This document shows, one piece after another, positions 1,334 through 34,678 of a DNA stretch of 35,403 nucleotides. Position 1 is the stretch's first letter. Every line of letters starts with the position of its first letter. The translations under genes were made by a program, and so were the position numbers. This DNA comes from a virus. Taxonomy: Duplodnaviria > Heunggongvirae > Uroviricota > Caudoviricetes. The notes beneath the pieces were generated by a model. The model ran no database searches and was not told where the DNA came from. It saw only the letters and a program-made list of their open reading frames with translations. The stretch is from IMG/VR virus record IMGVR_UViG_2648501437_000004; one strand, given 5' to 3'.

Positions 1334-3397
1334 TCAATCTTTTTTGTAGTGGTACGCCTCAAAACCGCCAGCGTTCAGTAGGATATCGGGCGCCCATTCG
1401 GGGTCAGTGGAGAGAAGCGCGGAAAGCGCTTTATCGTTGAAATCTTCTGTGTCAGGTGCTTCGGTGATCACCTCGTCGTGTACCGTCAGCACAATGCTGT
1501 AACCGGCATCTTCGATAAGCGGCATGTTTCCGGCCAGAATGTCGCGGGCGGCCGCCTGGGTGATGTTCTCCACCAGCTTTCCGCCGTAGGTTTTGAGTCG
1601 TTGCCATTTACGCGAATAAGAGTTAACCCCCATGTAGGTGATATTCCCTTTTTCGATAACCGGAGACGGGTAGCATACAGCGCGTCCGGATGGTAGCTGT
1701 ATGCGCAGCCACGCGCCATCGCGGCGGATTTTAAGATAACCGCAATACAATGTTTTTTGCGGTGTGGCGATTGCAGTGCGGACGGTGCGCTCCAGTTCGT
1801 ACCAGAAATCACAGGTCGCGGGATGCGCCCGGCGCCAGAGACGTTTAAGTGAGTCGCAGGCGATAAATACCCGTTCAGAAAGCCCGTAGGTTGACTTGCG
1901 TTTAACCGATTCGTCGTACCAGCTTTTCGCCTCGCGGATAACATCGCGGGGAATGTTTGGTAGTGCGGCGTTCGCCAGCTCGTCGAGATCGAGACCGTAA
2001 ACCAGTGCAAAAGTGATGAAGGCCGACACACCACCACCATAACCCAGACCGAGTTCCATGACTTTACCGATCTGACGCATGTGTTTATCAACATCATCTG
2101 GTGCAATATCGAAAGCTTTTGCATACGCCAGTTTATATAAGTCCGGACCCGTTCCGGCGTCGTACTCTCTGAATGCATTCAGTTTCCATTCTTCTCCCGC
2201 CAGCCATGCCAGCATACGGCCTTCAATGTTCGACAAGTCACTTACCACCAGCTTTTTGCCTGTTGGCGCGATAATGCAGCCACGTAACGCTGAACTGGTT
2301 AGTTCCATGATATTGTCAAACAGCAGGTCTGCACATCCGGCTTTCAGTGCTTCGATGCCTTCGTCTATTTGTTCCTGTTTTAGTGAAGGGCGGGGAAGGT
2401 TCTGGGGCTGGAATAGCCGTCCGGCCCAACGACCGGTACGTGACGCCCCGCAGAACTGTAGCGTACCGCGTAAGCGCCCGTCGTGGCTTACGCCTTTCAT
2501 CAGTGCCTTGTATTTACTGGTGCTGGTAGTACTGGCCTGCAGGCGGATAGCCAGCAGTTCTTTCACGGCAGATGGTAAATCGGGGTCGGCAATACGACGT
2601 TCCAGAGTACTGCGTTGCATGTCTGGTAGCTCCACACCGTAGGATTCAACAATGTGCTTAATCAACGCGTCTCGTTGTGTGGCTGCCTGCACTTCGCCAT
2701 CAGTCATTTCCTGTGTACGCTTTGCCAGGCGCTTTTGCTCCTGGTCTACCGCTTCGATCGCAGCGCGCGCGAGTTGAATGTCCATGCAGACGCCCCGGTC
2801 GTTGATCTGCTGATCACGATGCCAGAGCGCCAGTTCTGTCCCCTGATAATTCCACTTCGGCAGACGTTTATAGACTTCGCGCATTGCCTCGATATCCAGT
2901 CCGGCGTAAGCAACAAAGCGCCGCCATTCTTCCGGGTGGGTTTTACTGGTGGCCCGACGCAGTTTGCTGTTTTTCGGGCGTGGCTTACAGAACAGCTGGA
3001 TCAGCGCTTTACCTTCTTTGTCCTTCGCTTTGTCTTGCGGGACGCCGAGTATTTCGCAGAGTTCCCCCAGAGACCCCGGGAGGCCGTGCGCCAGCGCCTG
3101 CACCATTGTGTCGCGCCAACGTTCGACTGGCGGTGCCAGGCGCGGCATTGCATAACGCAGAACGGTGCGGTCGAAGTGAGAGTTATGGAAATAAAGCAGG
3201 GTTTCAGGGTCTGCGATTGCTTCGTATAAGCCGTGTGGAATACCACCACCGGCAGTGATATCCCACACGTTTACTGGCCCGTCGTTGATAGCCCATGCGA
3301 AAAGCATCACTTCAACGCCTTCGGCATACGCATGGGTACCGTTCGTAATAGGGATTTCGCAATAGGTTTCCAGGTCGCCCCATAGTATATTGGACAT
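1334..3397 (-). CDS. Family A DNA polymerase (Pol I-like, phage type) with N-terminal 3'-5' exonuclease-like region
   Basis: 687 aa, ATG at 3395-3397 with AAGG Shine-Dalgarno. Motif A-like [21 protein letters not shown], motif B-like [16 protein letters not shown], motif C-like VHDE. Confidence 0.85.
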
Positions 3398-3443: not shown

Positions 3444-4073
3444 ATGCATATGATCCAATACTTGATTGACCATACAGAGCATCTGGAGAAAATAGCTGGA
3501 TATATTTTTTCATGTTTGATTGTTATGGGAGTCTGGATAAGAAAGATTATTTTTAATTATAAGTATAAAGAGCCTAAATATGTTAAGAAGTTAATTTTAT
3601 ATTTAGTTAAGTATGAACGTTATCTGGATGAGGAGGATAAGAGTGCCATAGAAAAAAGAATAAATGATAAAATTATTCGTGATGCGCTGAAATTGCAATC
3701 ATCTTATAACCGAAGAGATGTTATTTACATTTGCAATAGATTAGAAAAAAGACAGTATATAAATCAGTTGATTAAGCTTCAGAATTATATAGAGAAAGAT
3801 AACGGAGTGTTTTTTATTAATGTTGATTTTTCAGGTTTTTTATTTATTATTAGTCGTCTGTTTTCCTTTCTGTGTTTTGTGCTGTTTACCCTTTTTTCTA
3901 TTATCTGCATTATTTCCATAGGGCAAAATGAAGGCCTTTTAAATTATCTTGTGTATATGGTTATGATAATAGTTTTAGAGACTGTTGGTTTTTGGATGTA
4001 TGATACTTTCCCGTCTAAGAAAAAGATCTGTGAACTAAATAAAGAATTGAGAAAGATTAAGATTCCTGAGTGA
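3444..4073 (+). CDS. AT-rich hypothetical membrane protein (accessory/moron gene)
   Basis: 209-aa ORF opposite to the flanking operon. GC roughly 25-35% by hand count versus about 50-55% around it. Hydrophobic segments IAGYIFSCLIVMGVWI, FLFIISRLFSFLCFVLFTLFSIICIISIG and LVYMVMIIVLETVGFWMY; Lys/Glu-rich soluble middle. Confidence 0.7.
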   Translation: MHMIQYLIDHTEHLEKIAGYIFSCLIVMGVWIRKIIFNYKYKEPKYVKKLILYLVKYERYLDEEDKSAIEKRINDKIIRDALKLQSSYNRRDVIYICNRLEKRQYINQLIKLQNYIEKDNGVFFINVDFSGFLFIISRLFSFLCFVLFTLFSIICIISIGQNEGLLNYLVYMVMIIVLETVGFWMYDTFPSKKKICELNKELRKIKIPE

Positions 4074-4689: not shown

Positions 4690-5991
4690 TCAGATGAGGT
4701 CTGCGGTTAGCGTATCGTCGGATACGTCGTCGAAATCATTTACAGGGTTGATATTGAGTGCGGGGCGTGGGTCTGACTCGGGAACGACGGTGGGTTTTCC
4801 ATCAGCTCGTGTTATCAGTGCCTCGACTTTTGACCAACGGCGCGGACTGGCCTTTTTGATAAGTTTTTCGGCTTTTGTGGGACTAATAAGTTTAAAGTCG
4901 AATACTTCTTCAGTTTTGTACCTGAACTGGTCCTTCAGAAGTGCGCGAGCTGCCTCTTCATCACTCCAGGCCCGGTTACCTTGTTTTCCTGTTACCAGTT
5001 TAAACCCCGGTACCGGATGTCCGGCATTGAGTTCATCGTGAACCCGGTCCCGTACTGCCTTTAGCCAGGATTCAATAAAGTCGGCCTGGCTATAGATCTC
5101 TGCAAGCTGCTCAATGGTTAACAGAGGTACACGTGCGCTGGCATTGGTGATTATTTCGCTGACAGGCTTTGTCAGATCTTCAAAATCGCTGGCCGCTGTT
5201 TGTAAATGCTGCATTTTCTGGGCAGTGCAAATAGCTTTTGCTTTACAGAAGCGGCACTGTTTTTCTCCAGGTATGAAGTTTTCCAGCGGTAGTGTCTCAA
5301 TGCCTTCGCATTCAGCAATATTGAGAACAAGGATCGCACTGGTTGCGGCCTCCAGTGCCCGTTCACCGAAAGACTGAAGTTCCTGTACGGTTAACGACCA
5401 TTCTGAAACGTGGTTGAGCCTTGGCTGGTGAATAAATAATCTTACAGTCTCAAAGTCATACAGCATGCTGAATTGTTCGAGAGCACCCAGAGCATACAGT
5501 TGTAGTTGCTCATTTTGTTCTGCATCAATGCGGACGCCTTTGCCATATTTCAGGTCGTGGATTTGTAATTCGTTACCAGCGATGATTATGCCGTCGGCAG
5601 TTCCGAAAGATTCTTCCACACCCGTTATATGTGAGAAATCAACACGTTGTTCAACCAATAGTTCATTATTCTGTGCAAGAGTCCAGACCGTATCAACATA
5701 CCGGCCGACGGCTTCGACCATTTCATCATCCACCTGTGGGCCAGATGTATCATCAGGATTTTCGCGAAGGGGGTATGAGCCGAGAAACATAGAAACATTG
5801 CATCCGGCGTAGTGTTCCGGGTGGCTTTGCCTGTTTCGTAGAACTTTTTCAGCAAGCGCGTGCGCTGTAGTGCCCTCGATTGCAAAAGTTGTTTCTTTAT
5901 CCGGTTGTGTGGCCTCCAGCGCCAGACTTCCTGGGCAGCGCATCCATCGATGCGCTGATGATGGAGAAAGTTGTGCGTGAACGTCTGGCAT
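4690..5991 (-). CDS. DUF2800-type PD-(D/E)XK nuclease (Cas4/RecB-like) with C-terminal Cys cluster and acidic tail
   Basis: N-terminal [15 protein letters not shown] motif; cysteine cluster [10 protein letters not shown]; acidic C-terminus [16 protein letters not shown]; co-directional with polymerase. Confidence 0.75.
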
Positions 5992-12087: not shown

Positions 12088-12510
12088 ATGCGTAATATTC
12101 AACAGGTTTTAGAGCGCTGGGGTGGCTGGGCAGCGAGTGAAGGTGGTAGCGTCTACTTTCCTCCTGTTGCAGCCGGGTTTAAGAATCTGCTACCCGCGAC
12201 GCAGTCTGGAAGGCTGAAATGCAGTGACAATGACGGTCTTATCATCAACTCCGCTATGAGCTGCCTGAAGAAAAAAGATCCGTATCTGTGCACGCTCCTT
12301 GAGTGGCATTACGTCCAGGCCATGCCCGTGCGGGCGATGGGTGAGAAGCTCGGCGTATCTCACACCCACGTTCTGAAGAGGCTTCAGGCGGCAGAGGGAT
12401 TTATTGACGGTTGCTTAGCCATGCTGGATGTGGTGCTCGAAATGGATCAGTCGGTTCAGTCAAAGCCTCAGGCTATCAGGACTTTGCGTAGGAGCTGCTC
12501 GGCGGCATAA
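12088..12510 (+). CDS. Q: Late-gene antiterminator Q (phage 82 / PF06530-type)
   Basis: N-terminus MRNIQQVLERWGGWAASEGG and overall pattern match recalled phage-82-type Q proteins; positioned just upstream of the lysis cassette. Confidence 0.8.
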   Translation: MRNIQQVLERWGGWAASEGGSVYFPPVAAGFKNLLPATQSGRLKCSDNDGLIINSAMSCLKKKDPYLCTLLEWHYVQAMPVRAMGEKLGVSHTHVLKRLQAAEGFIDGCLAMLDVVLEMDQSVQSKPQAIRTLRRSCSAA

Positions 12511-23268: not shown

Positions 23269-23806
23269 CACCAGTACAGAGCTCGGATGGCTGATACCAA
23301 CCAGTGGCGATCCGGATTATGACGAAGCGCTCGACAGGCTGTTAAGCCAGTGGATGCGTAACGTTTCCGGCCTGTCTGCCGGGATGGTTCTCCCGCGCTG
23401 GCAGAAAGAGCAGCCGCCACTGCTACCGGTTGAAACGAACTGGTGTGCGTTTGGGGTTATCGGATGGTCAGGTGATGACAGTCCGGCATTCACCAGACAG
23501 ACCGATGATGGCTCTCAGCTCTGGCGGCATGAAACGATTGAGTGTATGGCTTCGTTTTATGGACCGGCGGGGATGGTGTATGCGTCCCGGTTTCGTGACG
23601 GTATATCTGTGCCGCAGAACAATGCAGCACTGAATGCGCTGGGGCTGTCTCTTGGCGATTACACAGGTCTGACTCCCTTCCCTGAACTTATTAATCAGCA
23701 ATGGGTCCGCCGCTACGATATGACGGTGCGTCTGCGCCGGAAGGTTGTGCGCGAGTACGGTATTAAATCGCTGGTGGAAGCACCAGTCATCTTTTTCGGA
23801 GATTAA
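23243..23806 (+). CDS. Hypothetical tail-associated protein
   Basis: ATG at 23243 (the track start at 23240 is TTG); precedes the sheath gene. Confidence 0.5.
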   Translation: MGELRLSNNTSTELGWLIPTSGDPDYDEALDRLLSQWMRNVSGLSAGMVLPRWQKEQPPLLPVETNWCAFGVIGWSGDDSPAFTRQTDDGSQLWRHETIECMASFYGPAGMVYASRFRDGISVPQNNAALNALGLSLGDYTGLTPFPELINQQWVRRYDMTVRLRRKVVREYGIKSLVEAPVIFFGD

Positions 23807-23809
23807 GCT

Positions 23810-24955
23810 ATGGCACAGGGCTTGCCTGTATCAAACGTTGTTAATGTTGATGTGATCATGTCGCCGCGTGCAGCATCAGGGCGAAATTTTGGTGCATTAC
23901 TCATTCTCGGCCCGTCCACAATCATTCCGGTAAGTGAGCGCATTCGCCGTTATTCTGCCGCGGAAGATATTGGAAAAGATTTTGGCGTGGAATCACCAGA
24001 ATATAAGGCTGCGCAGGTGTTTTTCTCTCAATCACCGAAACCTCAGGAGGTTTTTGTTGGTCGTTGGGTGAAAACGAAGGGAGACAGCGAACAGGCCACG
24101 CCTGAGACGCTGGAGCAGGCTGTGAATGCCATGCTCGATTATACTTCATGGTATGGGCTGGGGATTGCAGACGATGAAGATATTCCGGATGCAGACTGGC
24201 TGAAAGTGGCTGCGGCGATCGAATCCTCTTCTGTAAGCCGTATTCTGGCGATTACGACAAGCGATGATAAATGCCTGCAGACTGCATCCAGCGATGATTT
24301 GGCATCAAAACTGAAAACCGCCGGATATTCACGCAGTTTTATTCAGTATTCATCGGGTAATAAATACGCTGCGTTATCTGCATTTGGCCGGGCATTCACG
24401 GTTAATTTCAATGGCAGTAATACCGCGATTACGCTCAAGTTTAAGCAGGAGCCGGGTGTCGGGTATGAAACACTGACAGTCAGCCAGGCATCGGCACTTG
24501 ATGCAAAAAACTGCAATGTGTTCGTGTACTACCAGAATGATACAGCTATCCTCCAGCAGGGAGTGATGGCTAACGGCGATTTCTTTGATGAACGCCACGG
24601 CCTGGACTGGTTACAGAATTATGTGCAGACCAACCTCTATAACCTGCTTTATACCAGCACCACGAAAGTTCCCCAGACTGAAGCCGGTATTACCCGACTG
24701 TTATCAAATGTTGAAAAATCACTGGATCAGGCCGTTCAGAATGGACTGATTGCTCCGGGCGTATGGAACGGGGGCGACCTTGGCCAGTTGTCATCAGGTG
24801 ACACGCTGCCCAAAGGTTATTACGTATACGCCCAGCCGCTGGATGAACAGGCACAATCAGAACGTGAAGCCCGTAAGGCTCCGGTGATTCAGGCTGCAAT
24901 AAAACTTGCAGGCGCGGTTCATTACGCTGACGTACAGATTAACGTTGTTCGCTAA
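23810..24955 (+). CDS. Putative tail sheath protein
   Basis: 381 aa followed by a ~146-aa tube-sized protein, a chaperone with frameshift and the tape measure; call is by synteny. Confidence 0.55.
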
Positions 24956-26050: not shown

Positions 26051-28025
26051 AACTATTAAAGATTTCCTCGTCTCGCTTGGCTTCAGTGTGGATGATGCAG
26101 GAGCGAAAAAGTTCGGTTCTGTCCTCGCCGGTACAACTGCAAATGTCATCAAAATGGGGCTGGCTGTTGAAGGAGCTGCGCTGTCCGTGGTGGCCTTTAC
26201 GGCTAAGATCGCCTCCGGTCTGGATAATCTTTACTGGGCGTCACAGCGCACCGGCGCGACAGTCCAGGGAATTCAGTCTATTGGCTATGCGGTTTCGCAG
26301 GTTGGCGGCAGCGTGGACGCTGCGCGATCTTCTCTGGAAAGCCTCTCCCGGTTTATTCGTAACAATCCCGGGGCGGAAGGCTTCCTGAATCGCCTGGGCG
26401 TACAGACCCGTGATGCCAGCGGCAACATGCGTGACATGGCCGCTATTTTTACAGGTGTAGGCCAGAAGCTCAGCGGTATGCCGTATTACCGGGCTAACCA
26501 GTATGCGCAGATGCTGGGCATTGACGAAAATACCCTGATGGCTATGCGTCGCGGAGTGGGGCAGTTCAGCGCTCAGTATTCAGAAATGGTGAAAGCGATC
26601 GGATTTAATGCCGATCAGGCTGCCTTATCGTCAAACCGGTTTATGACCTCGCTGAAATCGCTCGGTGAAATGGCCGGGATGGCGCGGGACAAAATCGGAT
26701 CGAATCTTGCGGGCGGACTGGCGGGGCAGATTGATAACCTGCGCAAAAAGATAATTGAAAATTTTCCCAAAATTGAAGTCACCATCACAAAGGTCATAAA
26801 GGGGATCCTCTGGCTGGGTGAGATAGTCGGGCGGGTAGCATTTCGGATAGTCGATGGTGTCGGAGATATCATCGAGTGGTGGGGGAAACTGGATGCCGAA
26901 ACGAAAACCCTGATAGAGGTTATCGGCGGTCTGGTTGTCGCCATGCGGATACTTAACTCTACTTTCTGGATGTCACCTATAGGGCTGATTACCGGTCTGA
27001 TCGTGGCTCTCGGTCTCTTGTGGGAAGACTACAAAACATGGAAAGAAGGCGGTAACAGTCTTATCGACTGGGAAAAATGGCAACCGGCAATAGATAAAGC
27101 GAAGGATGCGATCACCTGGCTTCGTGATCACCTTCTGGAACTAAAAGATGGTGTTGGCGGCTGGCAAAATGCACTGGAAATCCTCGGTACATTCATCGCG
27201 GGTGTCTGGGTATCCAGGGTTCTGGGGGCTTTCGGGAAAATATCTGGTTTGCCGGTACCTCCATGGTTAAAAGGCTGGATGGCTTATGCTGCTTATTTGT
27301 ACTCCGATCGCGAAAATATTGGTGCCAGTGCGAAGTCATCCTGGGATTACACGAAACAAAATATTGGAGATTCATTGCGCTGGCTTGGCATTGATACCGA
27401 TTTTGGTCGTAATCCTCATACCGTAAAAGGCGCAAATATTCAGTCAGATATTCCAGGTGCTGAGCCGGAACAACATGCACAGGCTACGAAGCGAGGAGAA
27501 CGGAATAACAATCCGGGAAACCTTAATTTTGCTGGTCAGGCGGGGGCTTCTCTTGAACGACCGGGCGGGCGATTTGCCAGATTTGAAACCGCTTTTGATG
27601 GATTACGGGCTCTTGCTCGTCAGTTAATGCTGTACGCCGGACGGGGAATAAACAGTGTGGAGAAAATTATCTCTACCTGGGCACCTGCGTCTGATAATAA
27701 CAACACAACCGCGTATATCAGGGCTGTATCGCAACGACTGGGAGTGGATCCCCGGGCTGCCCTGAATATGAGCGATCCGCAAACCATGTCAGCATTGATG
27801 AGCAGCATTATCCAGCATGAGAATGGAAGAAATATCTATTCTCGAGAGCTGATTAATAAGGCTGCCGTGGCGGGAATTAGTGGCAAAGTGACAGAGGTTA
27901 ACCAGCAAAATACCTACCATATTTACGGTGGCGGAGATCCGCACGCTGTCGGTAATGAGGTTGCACGTCGGCAACAGTCTGCAAATGCTCAGGTCATGCG
28001 AAGTAATCAGGTGAGGGTGGGTTAG
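26040..28025 (+). CDS. Tail tape measure protein
   Basis: ATG 26040 with GAGAGG Shine-Dalgarno (track start 26019 is TTG). Large protein with helical N-terminal region and central hydrophobic segments, after the chaperone. Confidence 0.7.
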   Translation: MNAETIKDFLVSLGFSVDDAGAKKFGSVLAGTTANVIKMGLAVEGAALSVVAFTAKIASGLDNLYWASQRTGATVQGIQSIGYAVSQVGGSVDAARSSLESLSRFIRNNPGAEGFLNRLGVQTRDASGNMRDMAAIFTGVGQKLSGMPYYRANQYAQMLGIDENTLMAMRRGVGQFSAQYSEMVKAIGFNADQAALSSNRFMTSLKSLGEMAGMARDKIGSNLAGGLAGQIDNLRKKIIENFPKIEVTITKVIKGILWLGEIVGRVAFRIVDGVGDIIEWWGKLDAETKTLIEVIGGLVVAMRILNSTFWMSPIGLITGLIVALGLLWEDYKTWKEGGNSLIDWEKWQPAIDKAKDAITWLRDHLLELKDGVGGWQNALEILGTFIAGVWVSRVLGAFGKISGLPVPPWLKGWMAYAAYLYSDRENIGASAKSSWDYTKQNIGDSLRWLGIDTDFGRNPHTVKGANIQSDIPGAEPEQHAQATKRGERNNNPGNLNFAGQAGASLERPGGRFARFETAFDGLRALARQLMLYAGRGINSVEKIISTWAPASDNNNTTAYIRAVSQRLGVDPRAALNMSDPQTMSALMSSIIQHENGRNIYSRELINKAAVAGISGKVTEVNQQNTYHIYGGGDPHAVGNEVARRQQSANAQVMRSNQVRVG

Positions 28026-29981: not shown

Positions 29982-30323
29982 ATGAGGGGTATTATTTTTC
30001 TGTTAGCTGTCTTTTCTGCGTGCAGCGCGTGGGCGGATGGCTTCACGGTTAAATGCGGTGGCTACACTATGGTTGCAAACCAGGGCGAGTTATCGACTAT
30101 CAACGGTGAAAGAGTTACCTCTCAAAAAATCACCGAACTGGGTACCAATGGTTTGAAAGTAGACATGGGGCTTATGCCTGCCAAAGACGGTAACAACTAC
30201 GGCTTTGAATACATTCGTCGCCCTGGTACCGAAACGCGATTCCTGAATGTCCAGCTTCTGCAGAACAGCATGGATGCGCCGAAAATCATCGGATCTTTCC
30301 CTTGTAAAAAAGTGGCTGGGTGA
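29982..30323 (+). CDS. Small secreted protein or lipoprotein (accessory gene in tail operon)
   Basis: Signal peptide MRGIIFLLAVFSACSAWA (signal peptidase I site AWA|DG, or weak lipobox FSAC); GGGGA Shine-Dalgarno; starts 4 nt after the hub stop. Confidence 0.6.
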   Translation: MRGIIFLLAVFSACSAWADGFTVKCGGYTMVANQGELSTINGERVTSQKITELGTNGLKVDMGLMPAKDGNNYGFEYIRRPGTETRFLNVQLLQNSMDAPKIIGSFPCKKVAG

Positions 30324-30349
30324 AGGTAACCTGAAATTCGTAACGCCTG

Positions 30350-30387
30350 AAAAACAACAAAATGTGCTCTAAAAACTGTTGTTTTTT
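30350..30387 (+). terminator. Possible weak terminator after the secreted-protein gene
   Basis: aaaaacaaca ... tgttgttttt inverted repeat followed by a T run; AT-rich stem and 17-nt loop, so weak. Confidence 0.3.
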
Positions 30388-30472
30388 GAGACGAGCGATT
30401 ACACTGCACTGACTTTTTGATGGTGGATTGCCATCGATATGCTACTTCATTAAAGCCAGGAATAACTAAAAC

Positions 30473-31204
30473 ATGAGCTTAGCGCAGCCAAAATCAGGAG
30501 AACTGTTAGATCTTCTGACTCCTTCATTAACTAAGGGTGAAAACCTTCTGAGTGAGTTTGAAATCCATCGAATCATTCGTGAAGCGAAGAAACTACCTGA
30601 ACGTTATCAGGGGCTATCAATTGAAGGCTTAGCTAAGCTTGTTCTTGGTGAAATAGATGAAGGATGTTCACTCTGTGAGCGGGGGTTGAGAATAGCGCCT
30701 AACGATCCAGTTTCTTTTTGTAACTATACGATTGCGCTGCGTAACTTAGGTTTGCATGCTCGCCAGTATGTGATGATTCAGAAAGCATCTGATTCACTTA
30801 ATCCAACGATATTGGCTGAGGTTGCTACAATTTCTGCATACTGGGTTGATATCGATTTGCTTGAAAAGGTGATGCCGATGCTAACTGCAATGGAAGTGCC
30901 GCGCCCTGAAGATATGGGCAAATGGTATGACACGCTCAATTATCTGCATACCCAAAAAGATCATGCTCAGGAGCTAAAAACTATTGGGCGGCTCATGATG
31001 AACGTTGCAGAAAAGTACCGCGCTCGTCTTGCTGGCGCTCATGCTTTTTATGTAATGTCAGAACTTGATACGCTGTTCGTTGAAGTCAAAACAGACGATC
31101 CAGTGCTTCTTTCGCAGATGAATAATGCCTTGGCTGATGAGATTATTATTGCGGGGCTTGCGGATTCAGAATGCGTCGGATGCTTTGAAGCCGGGGAACT
31201 CTAA
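30473..31204 (+). CDS. Hypothetical protein A of inserted two-gene cassette (243 aa, predicted largely helical)
   Basis: ATG 30473 with AGGA upstream; GC about 40-45% by hand count versus about 55% in flanking tail genes; no family recognised. Confidence 0.65.
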   Translation: MSLAQPKSGELLDLLTPSLTKGENLLSEFEIHRIIREAKKLPERYQGLSIEGLAKLVLGEIDEGCSLCERGLRIAPNDPVSFCNYTIALRNLGLHARQYVMIQKASDSLNPTILAEVATISAYWVDIDLLEKVMPMLTAMEVPRPEDMGKWYDTLNYLHTQKDHAQELKTIGRLMMNVAEKYRARLAGAHAFYVMSELDTLFVEVKTDDPVLLSQMNNALADEIIIAGLADSECVGCFEAGEL

Positions 31205-31632
31205 TGTCGGTTGAGCATACCTGTTTTCTTGAATTGGCTAAGCATTCCCTGGCTCTAAACGGTGAGATGTGGACGAGAAATGCTATTAGCCGAGCATACT
31301 ATGGTATGTACCATTCCGCCTTACGGATCACCAACAATCTGGTACCGACCGCTACACAAGATGGTGAAAAACTAAAAGGTGGAGTTCACATGCGAGTCTA
31401 TACGGCCTTTTGTAGTGGTGAGGCAGCTGCACTTAACGATGTTGATGTTAACGCAGTAAAGAAAATCGGCGTTAAACTGAAAATGACGCATGCCCAACGT
31501 GTTAATTCTGATTACAAGCTTGAGCGGAAAATCAACCGGATTACCGCGAGAAGTGTAATTCTGGATGCGGAAGAGGTCGATGCAATCGTTAATCAATTAC
31601 TGAAGATTGGTGATGACTCGTTAACTGCATAA
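31204..31632 (+). CDS. Hypothetical protein B of inserted two-gene cassette (142 aa); tentatively HEPN-like helical protein
   Basis: TAATG start/stop overlap with gene A; GGGGA Shine-Dalgarno. N-terminal helix with RAYYGMYH (R-x6-H) is reminiscent of HEPN nucleases; not verified. Confidence 0.6.
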   Translation: MSVEHTCFLELAKHSLALNGEMWTRNAISRAYYGMYHSALRITNNLVPTATQDGEKLKGGVHMRVYTAFCSGEAAALNDVDVNAVKKIGVKLKMTHAQRVNSDYKLERKINRITARSVILDAEEVDAIVNQLLKIGDDSLTA

Positions 31633-31652
31633 GCTGAAATTTCTCAAAATTC

Positions 31653-31677
31653 AAACCCGCCACTTGGCGGGTTTTTT
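31653..31677 (+). terminator. Strong intrinsic terminator after the two-gene cassette
   Basis: aaacccgcc-actt-ggcgggttt hairpin with a TTTTTT run, 20 nt before the baseplate spike gene. Confidence 0.8.
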
Positions 31678-31696
31678 GCTTTCTGGAGCCTACTAA

Positions 31697-32449
31697 ATGG
31701 CAGTATCTGACCAGACCCGCAGCGGCGACCTTGCCGAAACATTTAAATCTGAACGGGAAACAACAAAGAACCAGATCCGTGTCGCCTTGCCTGGCATTGT
31801 TCAGTCATTCGCTCCTGATGCGGTGACGGCGGTTGTACAGCCTGCTATCCGTTACGTTGAAATTGATAACGACGGCAACCGCATTACCAAAAATTACCCA
31901 TTGCTGGTGGATGTGCCAGTGGTATTCCCGCGTGGCGGAGGCTGTACGCTAACGTTTCCAGTTAAAGCCGGTGATGAATGTTTGGTGATTTTTGCCGATC
32001 GTTGTATTGATTTCTGGTGGCAGAGTGGCGGGATACAGGAGCCGGTCGATGACAGAATGCATGATTTATCGGATGCGTTTTGTATTGTCGGTCCCCAGTC
32101 GCAGGCAAGGAAGATTAGCGGTATTAATACCAGTGCCACACAGTTGCGTAGTGATGACGGCAGCACCTATTTTGAGCTTAATCCTGATACCAGGAAAATT
32201 AAAATTGTCGCTCCGGGGGGCCTTGATGTGGTTGCCCCTCTGGCTGATTTTTCTGAGAAAGTAACCATTCATGGCCTGTTAACCTGGATGGGAGGCATGG
32301 TGGGGTCTGTTGTTTCTGGTGTGGCTTCAAAAATCACTGGTGCTGTTGAGTTTTTGGGTAGCGTGAAGGCTAACGGCAAGCCAATCGATGATACGCACAC
32401 TCATGGTGGTGTTCAGCGCGGTGGAAGCAATACCGACGGAGTAAACTGA
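31697..32449 (+). CDS. Baseplate assembly protein V-like (spike) with His-rich apex motif
   Basis: 250 aa; GGAG Shine-Dalgarno; C-terminal DDTHTHGG motif resembling metal-binding spike apices; first of the V/W/J/I-like baseplate set. Confidence 0.6.
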   Translation: MAVSDQTRSGDLAETFKSERETTKNQIRVALPGIVQSFAPDAVTAVVQPAIRYVEIDNDGNRITKNYPLLVDVPVVFPRGGGCTLTFPVKAGDECLVIFADRCIDFWWQSGGIQEPVDDRMHDLSDAFCIVGPQSQARKISGINTSATQLRSDDGSTYFELNPDTRKIKIVAPGGLDVVAPLADFSEKVTIHGLLTWMGGMVGSVVSGVASKITGAVEFLGSVKANGKPIDDTHTHGGVQRGGSNTDGVN

Positions 32450-32802: not shown

Positions 32803-34001
32803 TGGCTCTGAACCTTGATTCTCTCGGTTTATCTGCAAAGGTAACCGCGGAGGGGATCAGTGCGCCTGATTATCAGACGATACTCAGCACCCTGATTAGC
32901 TATTTTCAGCAGATTTATGGCAGTGATGCCTACCTCGAACCGGACAGCAAAGACGGCCAGATGGTGGCTCTGATGGCGCTGGCGATTCATGATGTCAATA
33001 ATATGGCGATAACTGTCTACAACTGTTTTTCACCGGCAACCGGCTATGGGGCTGCACTGACCAGTAACGTGAAAATAAATGGTATTTCACGTAAAGGCGC
33101 GACGAATTCTACGGTTGATTTGCTTCTTACAGGAACTGCCGGAACAACCATCATTAATGGCAGCGTGAAAGACAGTAATAATGTGATATGGCGTTTGCCT
33201 GCTTCAGTGGTGGTCGGCGTGGATGGTACAGTGATGGTGACCGCAAAATGTTCCGTCAGTGGTGCAGTGGCGGCGCTGGCTGGAACTATCACTGAAATTA
33301 ATACGCCAACCCGTGGCTGGGTTTCGGTAACCAATCCTGCTGCAGCTACTGTAGGCACTCCAGCAGAAACTGATGCGGAGTTACGTATCCGCCAGTCGCA
33401 AAGTGTTGCGTTGCCATCAATAACCCCATTTGAAGCACTGGATGGTGCTGTTTCTAATGTTACCGGTGTAACCCGCCACAAACTCTATGAAAACGATACT
33501 GGTTCGGAGGACGGTAACGGGTTACCGCCACACTCTGTTGCTGTAATTGTGGATGGCGGTGATGTAACGGATATTGCTCAGGCTATCAGAGGAAATAAAG
33601 GCCAGGGGACAGCCACTCACGGTACAACATCCGTTACGGTTCCGGATAAATACGGCAATCCCCATGTAATCAAATTCTCGCGTTCCAGTGATGTGCCTGT
33701 TTATGCCCGGATTAAATTAAAAGTTTTTACGGGTTATACCTCACAGATAGGGCAGCAGATCCAGCAGGCTATTTCCGACTATATCAATAGTCTTACGATC
33801 GGTGATTCGGTCCTTTTAAGTCGCATTTACTCACCGGCGAATCTTGGCGTGGTGAGTGGCGGGAATGCACGCTATTACGATATTCAGGAACTGACGATTG
33901 GGAAATCCCCGGGGGCTTTGTCGTCATCAAACATTGATATCAGATACAACGAATCTGCGTCCTGTACCCCGGAAAATATCGTTATAACGGTGGAGTCATG
34001 A
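32802..34001 (+). CDS. Baseplate J-like protein
   Basis: 399 aa; size and position typical of Baseplate_J proteins; overlaps neighbours. Confidence 0.6.
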   Translation: MALNLDSLGLSAKVTAEGISAPDYQTILSTLISYFQQIYGSDAYLEPDSKDGQMVALMALAIHDVNNMAITVYNCFSPATGYGAALTSNVKINGISRKGATNSTVDLLLTGTAGTTIINGSVKDSNNVIWRLPASVVVGVDGTVMVTAKCSVSGAVAALAGTITEINTPTRGWVSVTNPAAATVGTPAETDAELRIRQSQSVALPSITPFEALDGAVSNVTGVTRHKLYENDTGSEDGNGLPPHSVAVIVDGGDVTDIAQAIRGNKGQGTATHGTTSVTVPDKYGNPHVIKFSRSSDVPVYARIKLKVFTGYTSQIGQQIQQAISDYINSLTIGDSVLLSRIYSPANLGVVSGGNARYYDIQELTIGKSPGALSSSNIDIRYNESASCTPENIVITVES

Positions 34002-34678
34002 GCAAATACACCGAACTAATCACAAACTACCACGCCACCAAACCTAAATTTCTTGCACATGTTGATCTGATGACCCGGCCGCTTATTGATGTTGCGGCTG
34101 CCACCAGAGGGCTGATTACTGCATTTGATATTGACTCTGCGGTTGGTGTGCAACTTGACATTCTGGGATTGTGGATCGGACGTAGCCGTGTTGTCAGCCA
34201 GCCTATTTCAGGTGTCTATTTCAGCTGGGATACCGACGGGCTTGGATATGATCAGGGTGTATGGCAGGGGCCATACGATCCTGATTCCGGATACATGTAC
34301 CTCAGCGATGAAACTTATCGTGTCATCCTTAAAGCGAAGATTGCGATTAATAACTGGGACGGACGGAATGATTCGCTTCCGGCAATTCTTGACGCGGCAA
34401 CAGCAGGATCCGGACTGCGAATGCAGATAGTCGATAACCATGACATGACGATATCGGTCTGGGTCTTTCCTGATACTGATATTTCAGATGTATCGCGTGA
34501 GTTAATTGCGGCAATTAAACAGGGGTATCTCACAGTAAAAGCCGCCGGGGTATGGGCGGGTGGCATTGAAACACCTTCGGTGGAAACCCCATCGGAAGGT
34601 TCAAAATTTTTTGGTTTTGATATGGATAACGAATTCATCAGTGGTTTTGATGTAGGGGCATGGGGAGTATTACTCTGA
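33998..34678 (+). CDS. Putative tail protein I-like (baseplate/tail fibre attachment)
   Basis: 226 aa between the J-like gene and the tail fibre. Confidence 0.5.

Follow-up and report, generated by a model that had tools for sequence, protein, structure and literature searches.

A mobile pair of genes encoding a TPR protein and a HEPN-fold protein in the tail operon of SEN34-like prophages: a candidate conflict module

The stretch of DNA analysed here, 35,403 nucleotides long (IMG/VR record IMGVR_UViG_2648501437_000004; hereafter the window), represents an Escherichia coli prophage, a myovirus of the SEN34/Brunovirus-like kind, and is identical to the prophage in the O55:H7 strain DEC5E. Between its genes for the baseplate hub and the membrane-puncturing spike lie two small genes, here called A and B, which are the subject of this report (Table 1). 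The TAA stop codon of A (31202-31204) and the ATG start codon of B (31204-31206) have one base in common, giving the junction TAATG; this overlap and the positions of both genes, as given in a preliminary description made from the sequence alone, agree with the list of open reading frames (ORFs) and with the sequence. The G+C content (GC) of A is 0.443 and that of B 0.441, with values at third codon positions of 0.385 and 0.413, against 0.544 for the hub gene, 0.501 for the spike gene, 0.526 for the structural module and 0.500 for the whole window; the variable segment that contains the two genes stands at 0.434. The contrast of about 40–45% against about 55% in the preliminary description is thus real on the hub side and smaller on the side of the spike. 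A and B are genuine genes under purifying selection. The ratio of non-synonymous to synonymous substitution rates (dN/dS), measured against the orthologues in Pseudocitrobacter and Citrobacter, is 0.09–0.16 for A and 0.06–0.07 for B (0.045 for the hub gene), and both ORFs are intact, full length and annotated in all 33 complete E. coli genomes that carry the cassette. Two minus-strand ORFs within the cassette, of 53 and 74 amino acids, are without support.

The protein encoded by B very probably has the HEPN fold. Its AlphaFold2 model, made with a 24-sequence alignment, has a predicted local distance difference test score (pLDDT) of 91.4 and forms the four-helix up-down bundle of the HEPN superfamily, and the best matches that Foldseek finds for it in the PDB are all HEPN proteins (2hsb, 2q00 and 1ufb, with probability 1.00 and template-modelling (TM) scores of 0.54–0.69); further matches are the HEPN domain of sacsin (3o10), 1wty, 4nqf, HepT (6m6u) and AbiV (9bj7). 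Searching the PDB with the single sequence of B gave no match, and a narrow profile gave only a weak one, to 2hsb. A profile of the widened family matched 9xbd (E 1.6e-5), 9xbc (7.8e-5) and 2hsb, a UPF0332 protein (1.7e-3), and the alignments to 9xbd and 2hsb bring SRAYYAM, His62 and R-x3-D-Y into register. It is through these widened-profile matches, and not through a Pfam match, that B is linked to PF05168/UPF0332 (COG1895); some of its homologues are labelled UPF0332 family by JGI and HEPN domain-containing protein by NCBI. By sequence, the solved structures nearest to B are 9xbd and 9xbc, the one a HEPN domain-containing protein of 125 amino acids and the other its variant with phenylalanine in place of the motif tyrosine, which suggests that this tyrosine is under study by someone; no publication for the two entries was found in the literature searched.

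Across the family, the residues E21, R25, S29, R30, Y32, Y33, H62, L92, K93, R99, D103, Y104 and L106 of B are invariant and H37 is nearly so. The motif position in helix 4 reads R99-x3-D103-Y104. In HEPNs of the PF05168 type an aspartate often replaces the conserved histidine, and a conserved histidine lies elsewhere (Anantharaman 2013, PMC3710099, Table 1); by alignment, H62 is a candidate for that residue in B. The preliminary description had drawn attention to an R-x6-H helix (RAYYGMYH) as reminiscent of HEPN. The helix is present and the fold is indeed that of HEPN, but R30 and H37 belong to the SRAYYxMxH signature that UPF0332-type HEPN domains carry in helix 2; they do not occupy the position of the catalytic Rx4-6H motif, whose counterpart in B is R99-x3-D103-Y104 in helix 4.

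Protein A, modelled with a 24-sequence alignment at a pLDDT of 90.5, is built from helical hairpins that match TPR structures and profiles. A profile of A, run against 1.84 billion representative sequences, retrieved about 55 full-length clusters of 236–276 amino acids, none of them fused to another domain, and the remaining matches were generic TPR proteins aligned over residues ~40–110 only; in BFVD, contigs of gut siphoviruses contribute two structural relatives of full length. Conservation is highest at residues 1–60 and 226–240 and lowest at 136–195. A is therefore a narrow, never-fused TPR family. It has no above-threshold match in Pfam or NCBIfam, and both A and B fall in PHROG families labelled as of unknown function. 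The earlier statement that neither protein belongs to a recognisable family accordingly survives only in this last sense, the profile and AlphaFold/Foldseek searches that the preliminary description had proposed having led to HEPN for B and to TPR for A.

The two genes travel together. Next to every homologue of A (38–100% identity) there is a homologue of B, always in the order A then B, and in all cassettes the junctions are coupled or abutting (TAATG, TGATG, ATGA or TAAATG). Besides the backbone of the window the pair occurs in at least six others, which differ in the position that it occupies (Table 1; comparison loci are designated by L numbers). The more distant pairs encode proteins of 257 and 126, 261 and 131, 273 and 127, 260 and 131, and 262 and 138 amino acids; profile–profile alignment with hhalign gave probabilities of 95 and 72 for the A profile against the partners in L012 and L027, and of 97.7 for the B profile against the HEPN protein of L012, which supports homology of both partners; the two have diverged together. 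Among the loci examined, no B-like gene was found without an A-like neighbor. Phage YP3 carries an orphan A-like gene (L002, 3094-3894) of 266 amino acids, closest to the type in L027, with neither a HEPN partner nor a terminator. An orphan A and no orphan B are what one would predict were B the harmful partner, and a small coupled pair on mobile elements, with the presumed antitoxin but not the presumed toxin found alone, has the layout of a type II-like toxin–antitoxin (TA) system. The YP3 gene is flanked by a direct repeat of ~120 bp (2974-3096 and 3899-4021) that includes the ribosome-binding region of the spike gene; the arrangement looks like a product of recombination and is possibly an antitoxin-only, perhaps anti-defence, configuration.

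In related prophages the place of A–B is held by other genes or by none. Complete E. coli genomes with the hub gene number 306, those with the A–B cassette 33, so that some 90% of these related prophages are without it, and the phages vB_EcoM-689R2/606R2/611R5/683R1, SEN34 and YP3 have other genes at its position. Among 45 loci fetched with the hub protein, taking one genome per species and only those in which both hub and spike were located, the hub–spike gap ranged from 86 to 5014 bp across many Enterobacterales species and held more than 20 unrelated cargo clusters, with several slots empty. Some of this cargo resembles known defence genes: a PD-Lambda-1-like gene in L029 (2830-4059; 2.8e-82), a PDC-S42 gene in L030 (7503-8372; 1.7e-36) and, in L021 (7480-8328), a gene for an Mrr-like nuclease that matches PDC-S02, mREase_IV and the ZorD nuclease domain. 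Pfam identifies a YafO toxin, a T5orf172 protein, a ClpP-like protein and an insertion sequence (IS) transposase in slots elsewhere. Further cargo (L001, L007, L009, L017, L022, L024 and L042) comprises about 20 families with no assigned function, including proteins of 170, 246, 193 plus 139, 379 and 149 amino acids. With known defence genes in the same slot of relatives, the site behaves like a phage defence hotspot in the usual working sense, by resemblance and context, and no description of this hub–spike slot was found in the literature searched. The pair itself shows the presence/absence polymorphism and the deviant GC (0.44 against 0.53 for the structural module) of a moron, and we regard it as nearly certain that A–B is accessory mobile cargo. 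The comparison of the hub–spike junction across prophages that the preliminary description had called for thus upheld its view of the genes as variable cargo and not a tail component, given the 33 cassettes against 306 hubs, the other or missing cargo and the occurrence in other phage types.

The borders of the slot can be placed closely. In blastn comparisons with relatives that carry other cargo (L001, L003, L004, L007-L012, L015-L018, L037 and L048), homology is lost at ~30313-30324, at the 3′ end of a gene for a 113-amino-acid protein, and is regained at 31652-31656, the first base of the stem of an intrinsic terminator. The insertion therefore lies in the slot between hub and spike that the preliminary description had indicated, although its exact site is between the 113-amino-acid gene and the terminator and not directly after the hub gene. 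The hairpin of the terminator (31653-31674; -17.9 kcal/mol) is formed by a stem of 9 bp, 6 of them GC pairs, and is accompanied by a U tract; it ends ~20 nucleotides 5′ of the spike ATG. Together with the following gctttctGGAGcctaccaaATG it is kept in nearly all relatives, including those with empty slots (L037, L044, L046 and L048), and because it is retained with any cargo and with none, it is a feature of the backbone and not a part of the cassette; the breakpoints rule out the alternative that it came with A–B. The strength and position of the terminator were thus described correctly at the outset, and only its assignment to the cassette was mistaken. In nearly all SEN34-like relatives a terminator of the form ACCCGCC-N4-GGCGGGTTTTTT, followed by the ribosome-binding site of the spike gene, lies in mid-operon among the late tail genes (L001, L003, L007-L012, L015-L019, L021, L024, L027, L029, L030, L037, L044, L046 and L048); phage YP3 lacks it. 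A search of Rfam gave only sub-threshold matches of the terminator-like leader type (31602-31680). A 12-nucleotide direct repeat near the two ends, TAACCTGAAATT and TAAGCTGAAATT (30327-30338 and 31630-31641), was considered as an insertion signature and discarded, as nine other chance repeats equal it and it is not kept in L005.

A conserved terminator within a late operon implies that the spike and baseplate genes are either reached by antitermination or served by a promoter of their own. In phage lambda, polymerase modified by the Q protein ignores downstream terminators. Upstream in the prophage is a gene for a Q-family antiterminator, so that the Q-modified read-through during lytic growth proposed in the preliminary description is plausible. 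With this gene and the backbone terminator, cargo in the slot could be active in the lysogen while the spike and baseplate genes stay silent.

The evidence for a promoter belonging to the cassette comes mainly from its distant relatives. Six divergent cassettes in five backbones have in common a non-coding block 51–98 nucleotides upstream of A, consisting of ATTCAAC, then (G/A)TTGAA(G/A), a spacer of 17 nucleotides with the palindrome TTACC-N5-GGTAA, and TA(C/A)ACT, with flanks that are not conserved. The block resembles a sigma-70 promoter whose spacer contains an operator, as is usual for autoregulated TA operons. A -10-like hexamer at this distance is kept in 9 of 10 cassettes, and the subgroup to which the window belongs retains TACACT alone from the block. 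A scan with a consensus promoter found no plus-strand promoter upstream of A, and its 3 sites in 5 kb compare with 6.1 expected from shuffled sequences. The hexamers TTGATG and TATGCT, which the preliminary description had taken as promoter-like, lie where it placed them; they resemble TTGAAG-17-TATGCT of the Klebsiella cassette L050 and are partly kept in L054 and L061, but with their 15-nucleotide spacer, an occurrence not above chance and a lack of conservation they are a weak promoter candidate and, taken alone, not a compelling one. Of the moron layout with its own promoter and its own terminator, there remain, then, a terminator that belongs to the backbone, weak hexamers in the window and, in the distant cassettes, the shared TTGAA(G/A)-17-TA(C/A)ACT with its palindrome. 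Just past the 113-amino-acid gene, the cassette-specific leader also contains an AT-rich hairpin (30344-30392; AAAAACAACA ... TGTTGTTTTT; -10.1 kcal/mol) that may be a weak terminator; its structural conservation is doubtful, because a mismatch in L005 is uncompensated.

Table 1. Features of the A–B cassette and its surroundings in the window, and positions of related cassettes in other loci.
Feature	Position	Strand	Remarks
Gene A	30473-31204	+	243 amino acids, WP_000050470.1; N-terminal TPR-like helical repeats ~7-181, C-terminal beta-beta-alpha-beta domain 186-240
Gene B	31204-31632	+	142 amino acids, WP_000110002.1; HEPN fold, UPF0332/PF05168-like branch; putative RNase effector/toxin
Codons R99-V-N-S-D103-Y104 of B	31498-31515	+	HEPN motif position, helix 4; D/Y instead of canonical H; R-x3-D-Y of 2hsb and 9xbd aligns
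Codon H62 of B	31387-31389	+	Invariant His, start of helix 3; aligns with a His of 9xbd; candidate remote His
Variable (cargo) segment	~30315-31652	+	Intergenic leader, A and B; from blastn breakpoints against relatives
Intrinsic terminator	31653-31680	+	AAACCCGCC-ACTT-GGCGGGTTT and U tract; backbone element, right border of slot
TACACT, -10-like	30400-30405	+	67 nucleotides 5′ of A ATG; poor -35 here
TTGATG-15 nt-TATGCT	30417-30422 / 30438-30443	+	29 nucleotides from A ATG; spacer inverted repeat GATGG (30419-30423) / CCATC (30431-30435)
AGGA, Shine-Dalgarno sequence for A	30458-30461	+	Block CCAGGAATAAC kept in L005, L006, L054, L061
Gene for 113-amino-acid secreted/lipoprotein-like protein (phrog_3443)	29982-30323	+	Semi-core; 3′ end is left border of slot
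Membrane-puncturing spike gene	31697-32449	+	Pfam PF18352 3.6e-43 and Apex motif; RefSeq; first backbone gene past slot
Q-family antiterminator gene	12088-12510	+	RefSeq annotation of identical DEC5E prophage; upstream of cassette
Cassettes in hub–spike slot	L005, L006, L052-L056, L061		Salmonella, Ewingella, Pseudocitrobacter, Citrobacter, metagenomes
Cassettes in Klebsiella siphovirus-type prophage	L050, L051		Between tail tube/chaperone and tape measure
Cassettes in Enterobacter prophage	L057-L060		Behind Phage_tail_S-like gene
Cassette in lambdoid contig, lysis-terminase junction	L063		Between LysC and terminase genes
Cassette in Klebsiella phage Chronis	Early region		gp57/gp58
Distant co-diverged pairs, hub–spike slot	L012, L023, L027, L065-L071		
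Distant pair, Aeromonas Mu-like prophage			Between tape measure and DNA-circulation gene
Distant pair, Vibrio P2-like phage			P2-like replication region
Promoter/operator-like block	L050 5889-5919; L052 ~5890-5920; L057/L059 ~5905-5935; L073 ~2685-2715		

Compared with systems already described, A–B stands close to several and coincides with none. PADLOC-DB v2.0.0 gave no significant match, that of A being PDC-M71B at E 0.037; the sequences and accessions of A and B are absent from the DefensePredictor tables, as far as these are readable, the accessions WP_000050470 and WP_000110002 were not found mentioned in the literature searched, and the domain-centric NAR 2026 paper has no text on HEPN or TPR. 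With the HEPN-T/UPF0332 proteins (AF0298, 2hsb; TT1696, 1ufb; 9xbd), B shares the four-helix fold, the SRAYYAMxH helix 2, R-x3-D-Y in helix 4 together with a remote histidine, and a length of ~125–140 amino acids. It differs from them in falling below the Pfam threshold, in an extra insert at ~44–60 with invariant P48, G54 and G59-G60, in having a partner that is not a minimal nucleotidyltransferase, and in being phage-borne in Enterobacterales, whereas they are archaeal or thermophile-chromosomal. The type VII HepT/MntA system likewise has a non-HEPN partner upstream, a small HEPN protein downstream, a tyrosine beside the HEPN motif and a location on mobile elements (PMC3710099, PMC13000451). 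Unlike MntA, A lacks the nucleotidyltransferase fold and GS...DxD, having TPR repeats and a small domain in their place, and B lacks the histidine of the Rx4HxY motif of HepT; as the upstream gene does not encode a minimal nucleotidyltransferase (MNT), the pair is not of the HEPN-MNT type, and as neither the enzyme nor the motif histidine is there, neutralisation by AMPylation is not expected.

Two abortive-infection proteins of prophages offer a model for a protein trigger followed by cleavage of RNA or tRNA. HepS, from the Gifsy-1 prophage, is a HEPN protein that recognises the tail-tip proteins of siphoviruses and cleaves the anticodon loops of tRNA (PMC13043305), and Tha, from Staphylococcus aureus prophages, is a HEPN protein activated by tail proteins (PMC11087260). 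Both are, like B, small HEPN proteins that temperate phages carry as accessory cargo, and both are inactive until infection. HepS acts alone, with a canonical R100-x4-H105 and no partner gene, whereas B has a dedicated TPR partner and its motif histidine is replaced; HepS was not among the PDB matches of B in the sequence, profile or Foldseek searches, and no sequence relation was detected. Operons that couple HEPN proteins to TPR or Sel1 repeats have been noted for the LA2681 family and for AbiU2 with Sel1-repeat genes (Anantharaman 2013, PMC3710099). These, too, join a HEPN effector to an alpha-solenoid repeat protein in a predicted conflict role, but their HEPN proteins retain Rx4-6H and fall in different HEPN clades, homology to A or B was not found, and those pairs are likewise uncharacterised. 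As for the slot, the hotspots of P2 and P4 and the moron sites of lambdoid phages similarly exchange unrelated defence cargo at a fixed site (Rousset 2022, PMC9122126); the hub–spike slot differs from these in lying inside the baseplate part of the SEN34-like late operon, directly upstream of a conserved terminator.

We suggest that A–B is most plausibly a mobile HEPN-effector conflict module, TA-like or acting by abortive infection, with a new type of partner, the TPR protein. To this reading, which rests on context and fold, we assign a probability of roughly 55%; what favors it is that the pair is mobile, that known defence genes occupy the same slot, that the partners have HEPN and TPR folds, that both are under purifying selection and have diverged together, that the invariant R99, D103, Y104 and H62 fit the PF05168-type branch, that distant cassettes have a promoter/operator-like block in common, that among the loci examined only A is found as an orphan, and that HepS and Tha provide precedents. 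In such a module B would be a dimerising RNase effector or toxin whose active site comprises R99, D103, Y104 and H62 and is not of the canonical Rx4-6H kind. Protein A, made first from the shared mRNA, would bind B and keep it inactive, until either its TPR surface senses a protein of an infecting phage or A itself is lost on infection; the freed B would then cut RNA, and the infection would be aborted or the cell arrested. In the lysogen the two genes would be transcribed from a promoter borne by the cassette, with transcription stopped at the backbone terminator, and Q-modified polymerase would pass that terminator once lytic growth is under way. The RNase activity of B, its neutralisation by A, the trigger and the independent transcription are all steps that we infer, and we put forward this particular course of guarding and release only tentatively. 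It is likewise conceivable, though we would not yet expect it, that A–B founds a family of abortive-infection systems characterised by a TPR guard, an RNase with R-x3-D-Y and a remote histidine, a phage protein as trigger (possibly a tail or structural protein, as for HepS and Tha), an operator-controlled promoter of its own, a distribution over at least seven temperate backbones and a terminator-insulated hotspot in SEN34-like phages.

Several observations weigh against a conflict module. The function is predicted from context and fold and is unproven. B has no above-threshold match in Pfam or NCBIfam, hmmscan finding none in Pfam even at E<=1, and its only PADLOC match is weak (HEPN_IX, E 0.0094). 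The canonical Rx4-6H is absent, as R99-x3-D103-Y104 contains no histidine, and some relatives in the HEPN branch are non-nuclease binders of nucleotides or proteins, such as the HEPN domain of sacsin and nucleotidyltransferase-associated subunits (PMC3710099). No DNA-binding or enzymatic domain can be recognised in A, whose C-terminal domain has no fold assignment. The slot also holds non-defence cargo, including an IS transposase and many families without annotated function, so that location is suggestive evidence only. Finally, the promoter signals of the window are weak, with a 15-nucleotide spacer in one case and a poor -35 at TACACT in the other, and the cassette may therefore be expressed mainly within the late operon.

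These points bear differently on the alternatives. A–B could be a plain addiction or stabilisation TA system that secures the persistence of the prophage or of the cassette, by post-segregational killing or as selfish maintenance, with no anti-phage role. The layout would suit it well: the pair is small and coupled, the presumed antitoxin precedes its partner, the promoter region contains palindromes, and the cassette is spread over many mobile backbones. So would the finding of an orphan A-like gene and, among the loci examined, no orphan B. We nonetheless think it improbable, since known defence genes share the slot and A, a TPR protein of 243 amino acids, is large and unlike the classic labile antitoxins. 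Many prophage TA modules have proved to act in defence, so that addiction and defence overlap as explanations. To about the same degree we doubt that B is a non-catalytic HEPN binder and that the pair serves the phage, in counter-defence, as a regulator of a host process or as a decoy for host systems of the HEPN/MNT type. The missing catalytic histidine and the non-nuclease relatives just mentioned (PMC3710099) would be in keeping with this, the lone A-like gene of YP3 could inhibit such systems, and A–B is present in Chronis and the Vibrio phage, both of them functional isolates. Yet R99, D103, Y104, H62, R25 and R30 are invariant over a range of 24–100% identity, which fits a catalytic or ligand-binding site better than a scaffold, and the other cargo of the slot is of the defence type and not anti-defence.

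Far less probable is that A and B are accessory factors of tail or baseplate assembly, or host-specific minor virion proteins. They do lie inside the tail clusters of several backbones and share the strand of the late operon, but the great majority of related E. coli prophages dispense with them, their GC looks foreign, and the pair also occurs outside tail modules, at a lysis-terminase junction, in an early region and in a P2-like replication region. Nor, to our knowledge, are HEPN and TPR virion folds. That the genes are functionless hitch-hiking DNA or mis-called ORFs might be supposed from the absence of an annotated function anywhere and of any above-threshold Pfam match; this explanation is effectively refuted by the dN/dS values of 0.06–0.16, the ORFs intact in 33 of 33 E. 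coli copies, the high-confidence AlphaFold2 models and the conservation of the pair down to ~25% identity.

HEPN effectors in prophages are a known theme and many comparable HEPN candidates exist; what is new here is the TPR partner and the non-canonical motif within that theme, together with the newly delineated hotspot. If A–B is a conflict module as suggested, it would add a new type of partner for HEPN immunity, a TPR protein where there has been an MNT, an ATPase or none, and would provide a test case for whether HEPN proteins lacking the canonical histidine, with R-x3-D-Y and a remote histidine, act as RNases, a question that dates from the HEPN census of 2013. A new cargo hotspot would then be established within the tail operon of these common Enterobacterales prophages, and its more than 20 cargo families could be searched for defence genes. 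With the conserved terminator in mid-operon there is a simple account of how cargo could be expressed in the lysogen without activation of the tail genes.

The gene that forms the left border of the slot may be a surface-acting accessory gene itself. A signal peptide and a possible lipobox (FSAC) mark its 113-amino-acid product, and 47 copies, at 26–97% identity, occur across the related loci, most of which have the gene while some are without it; in Serratia aquatilis (L033, 7092-11980) it forms a tandem array of ~8 copies. In the DEC5E copy of the prophage (L064), RefSeq calls the DUF2612 baseplate gene (23669-24349) a pseudogene with an internal stop, and pinE (26689-27245) is frameshifted; the ORF at 33998-34678 of the window, approximately the counterpart of the DUF2612 gene of DEC5E, is intact.

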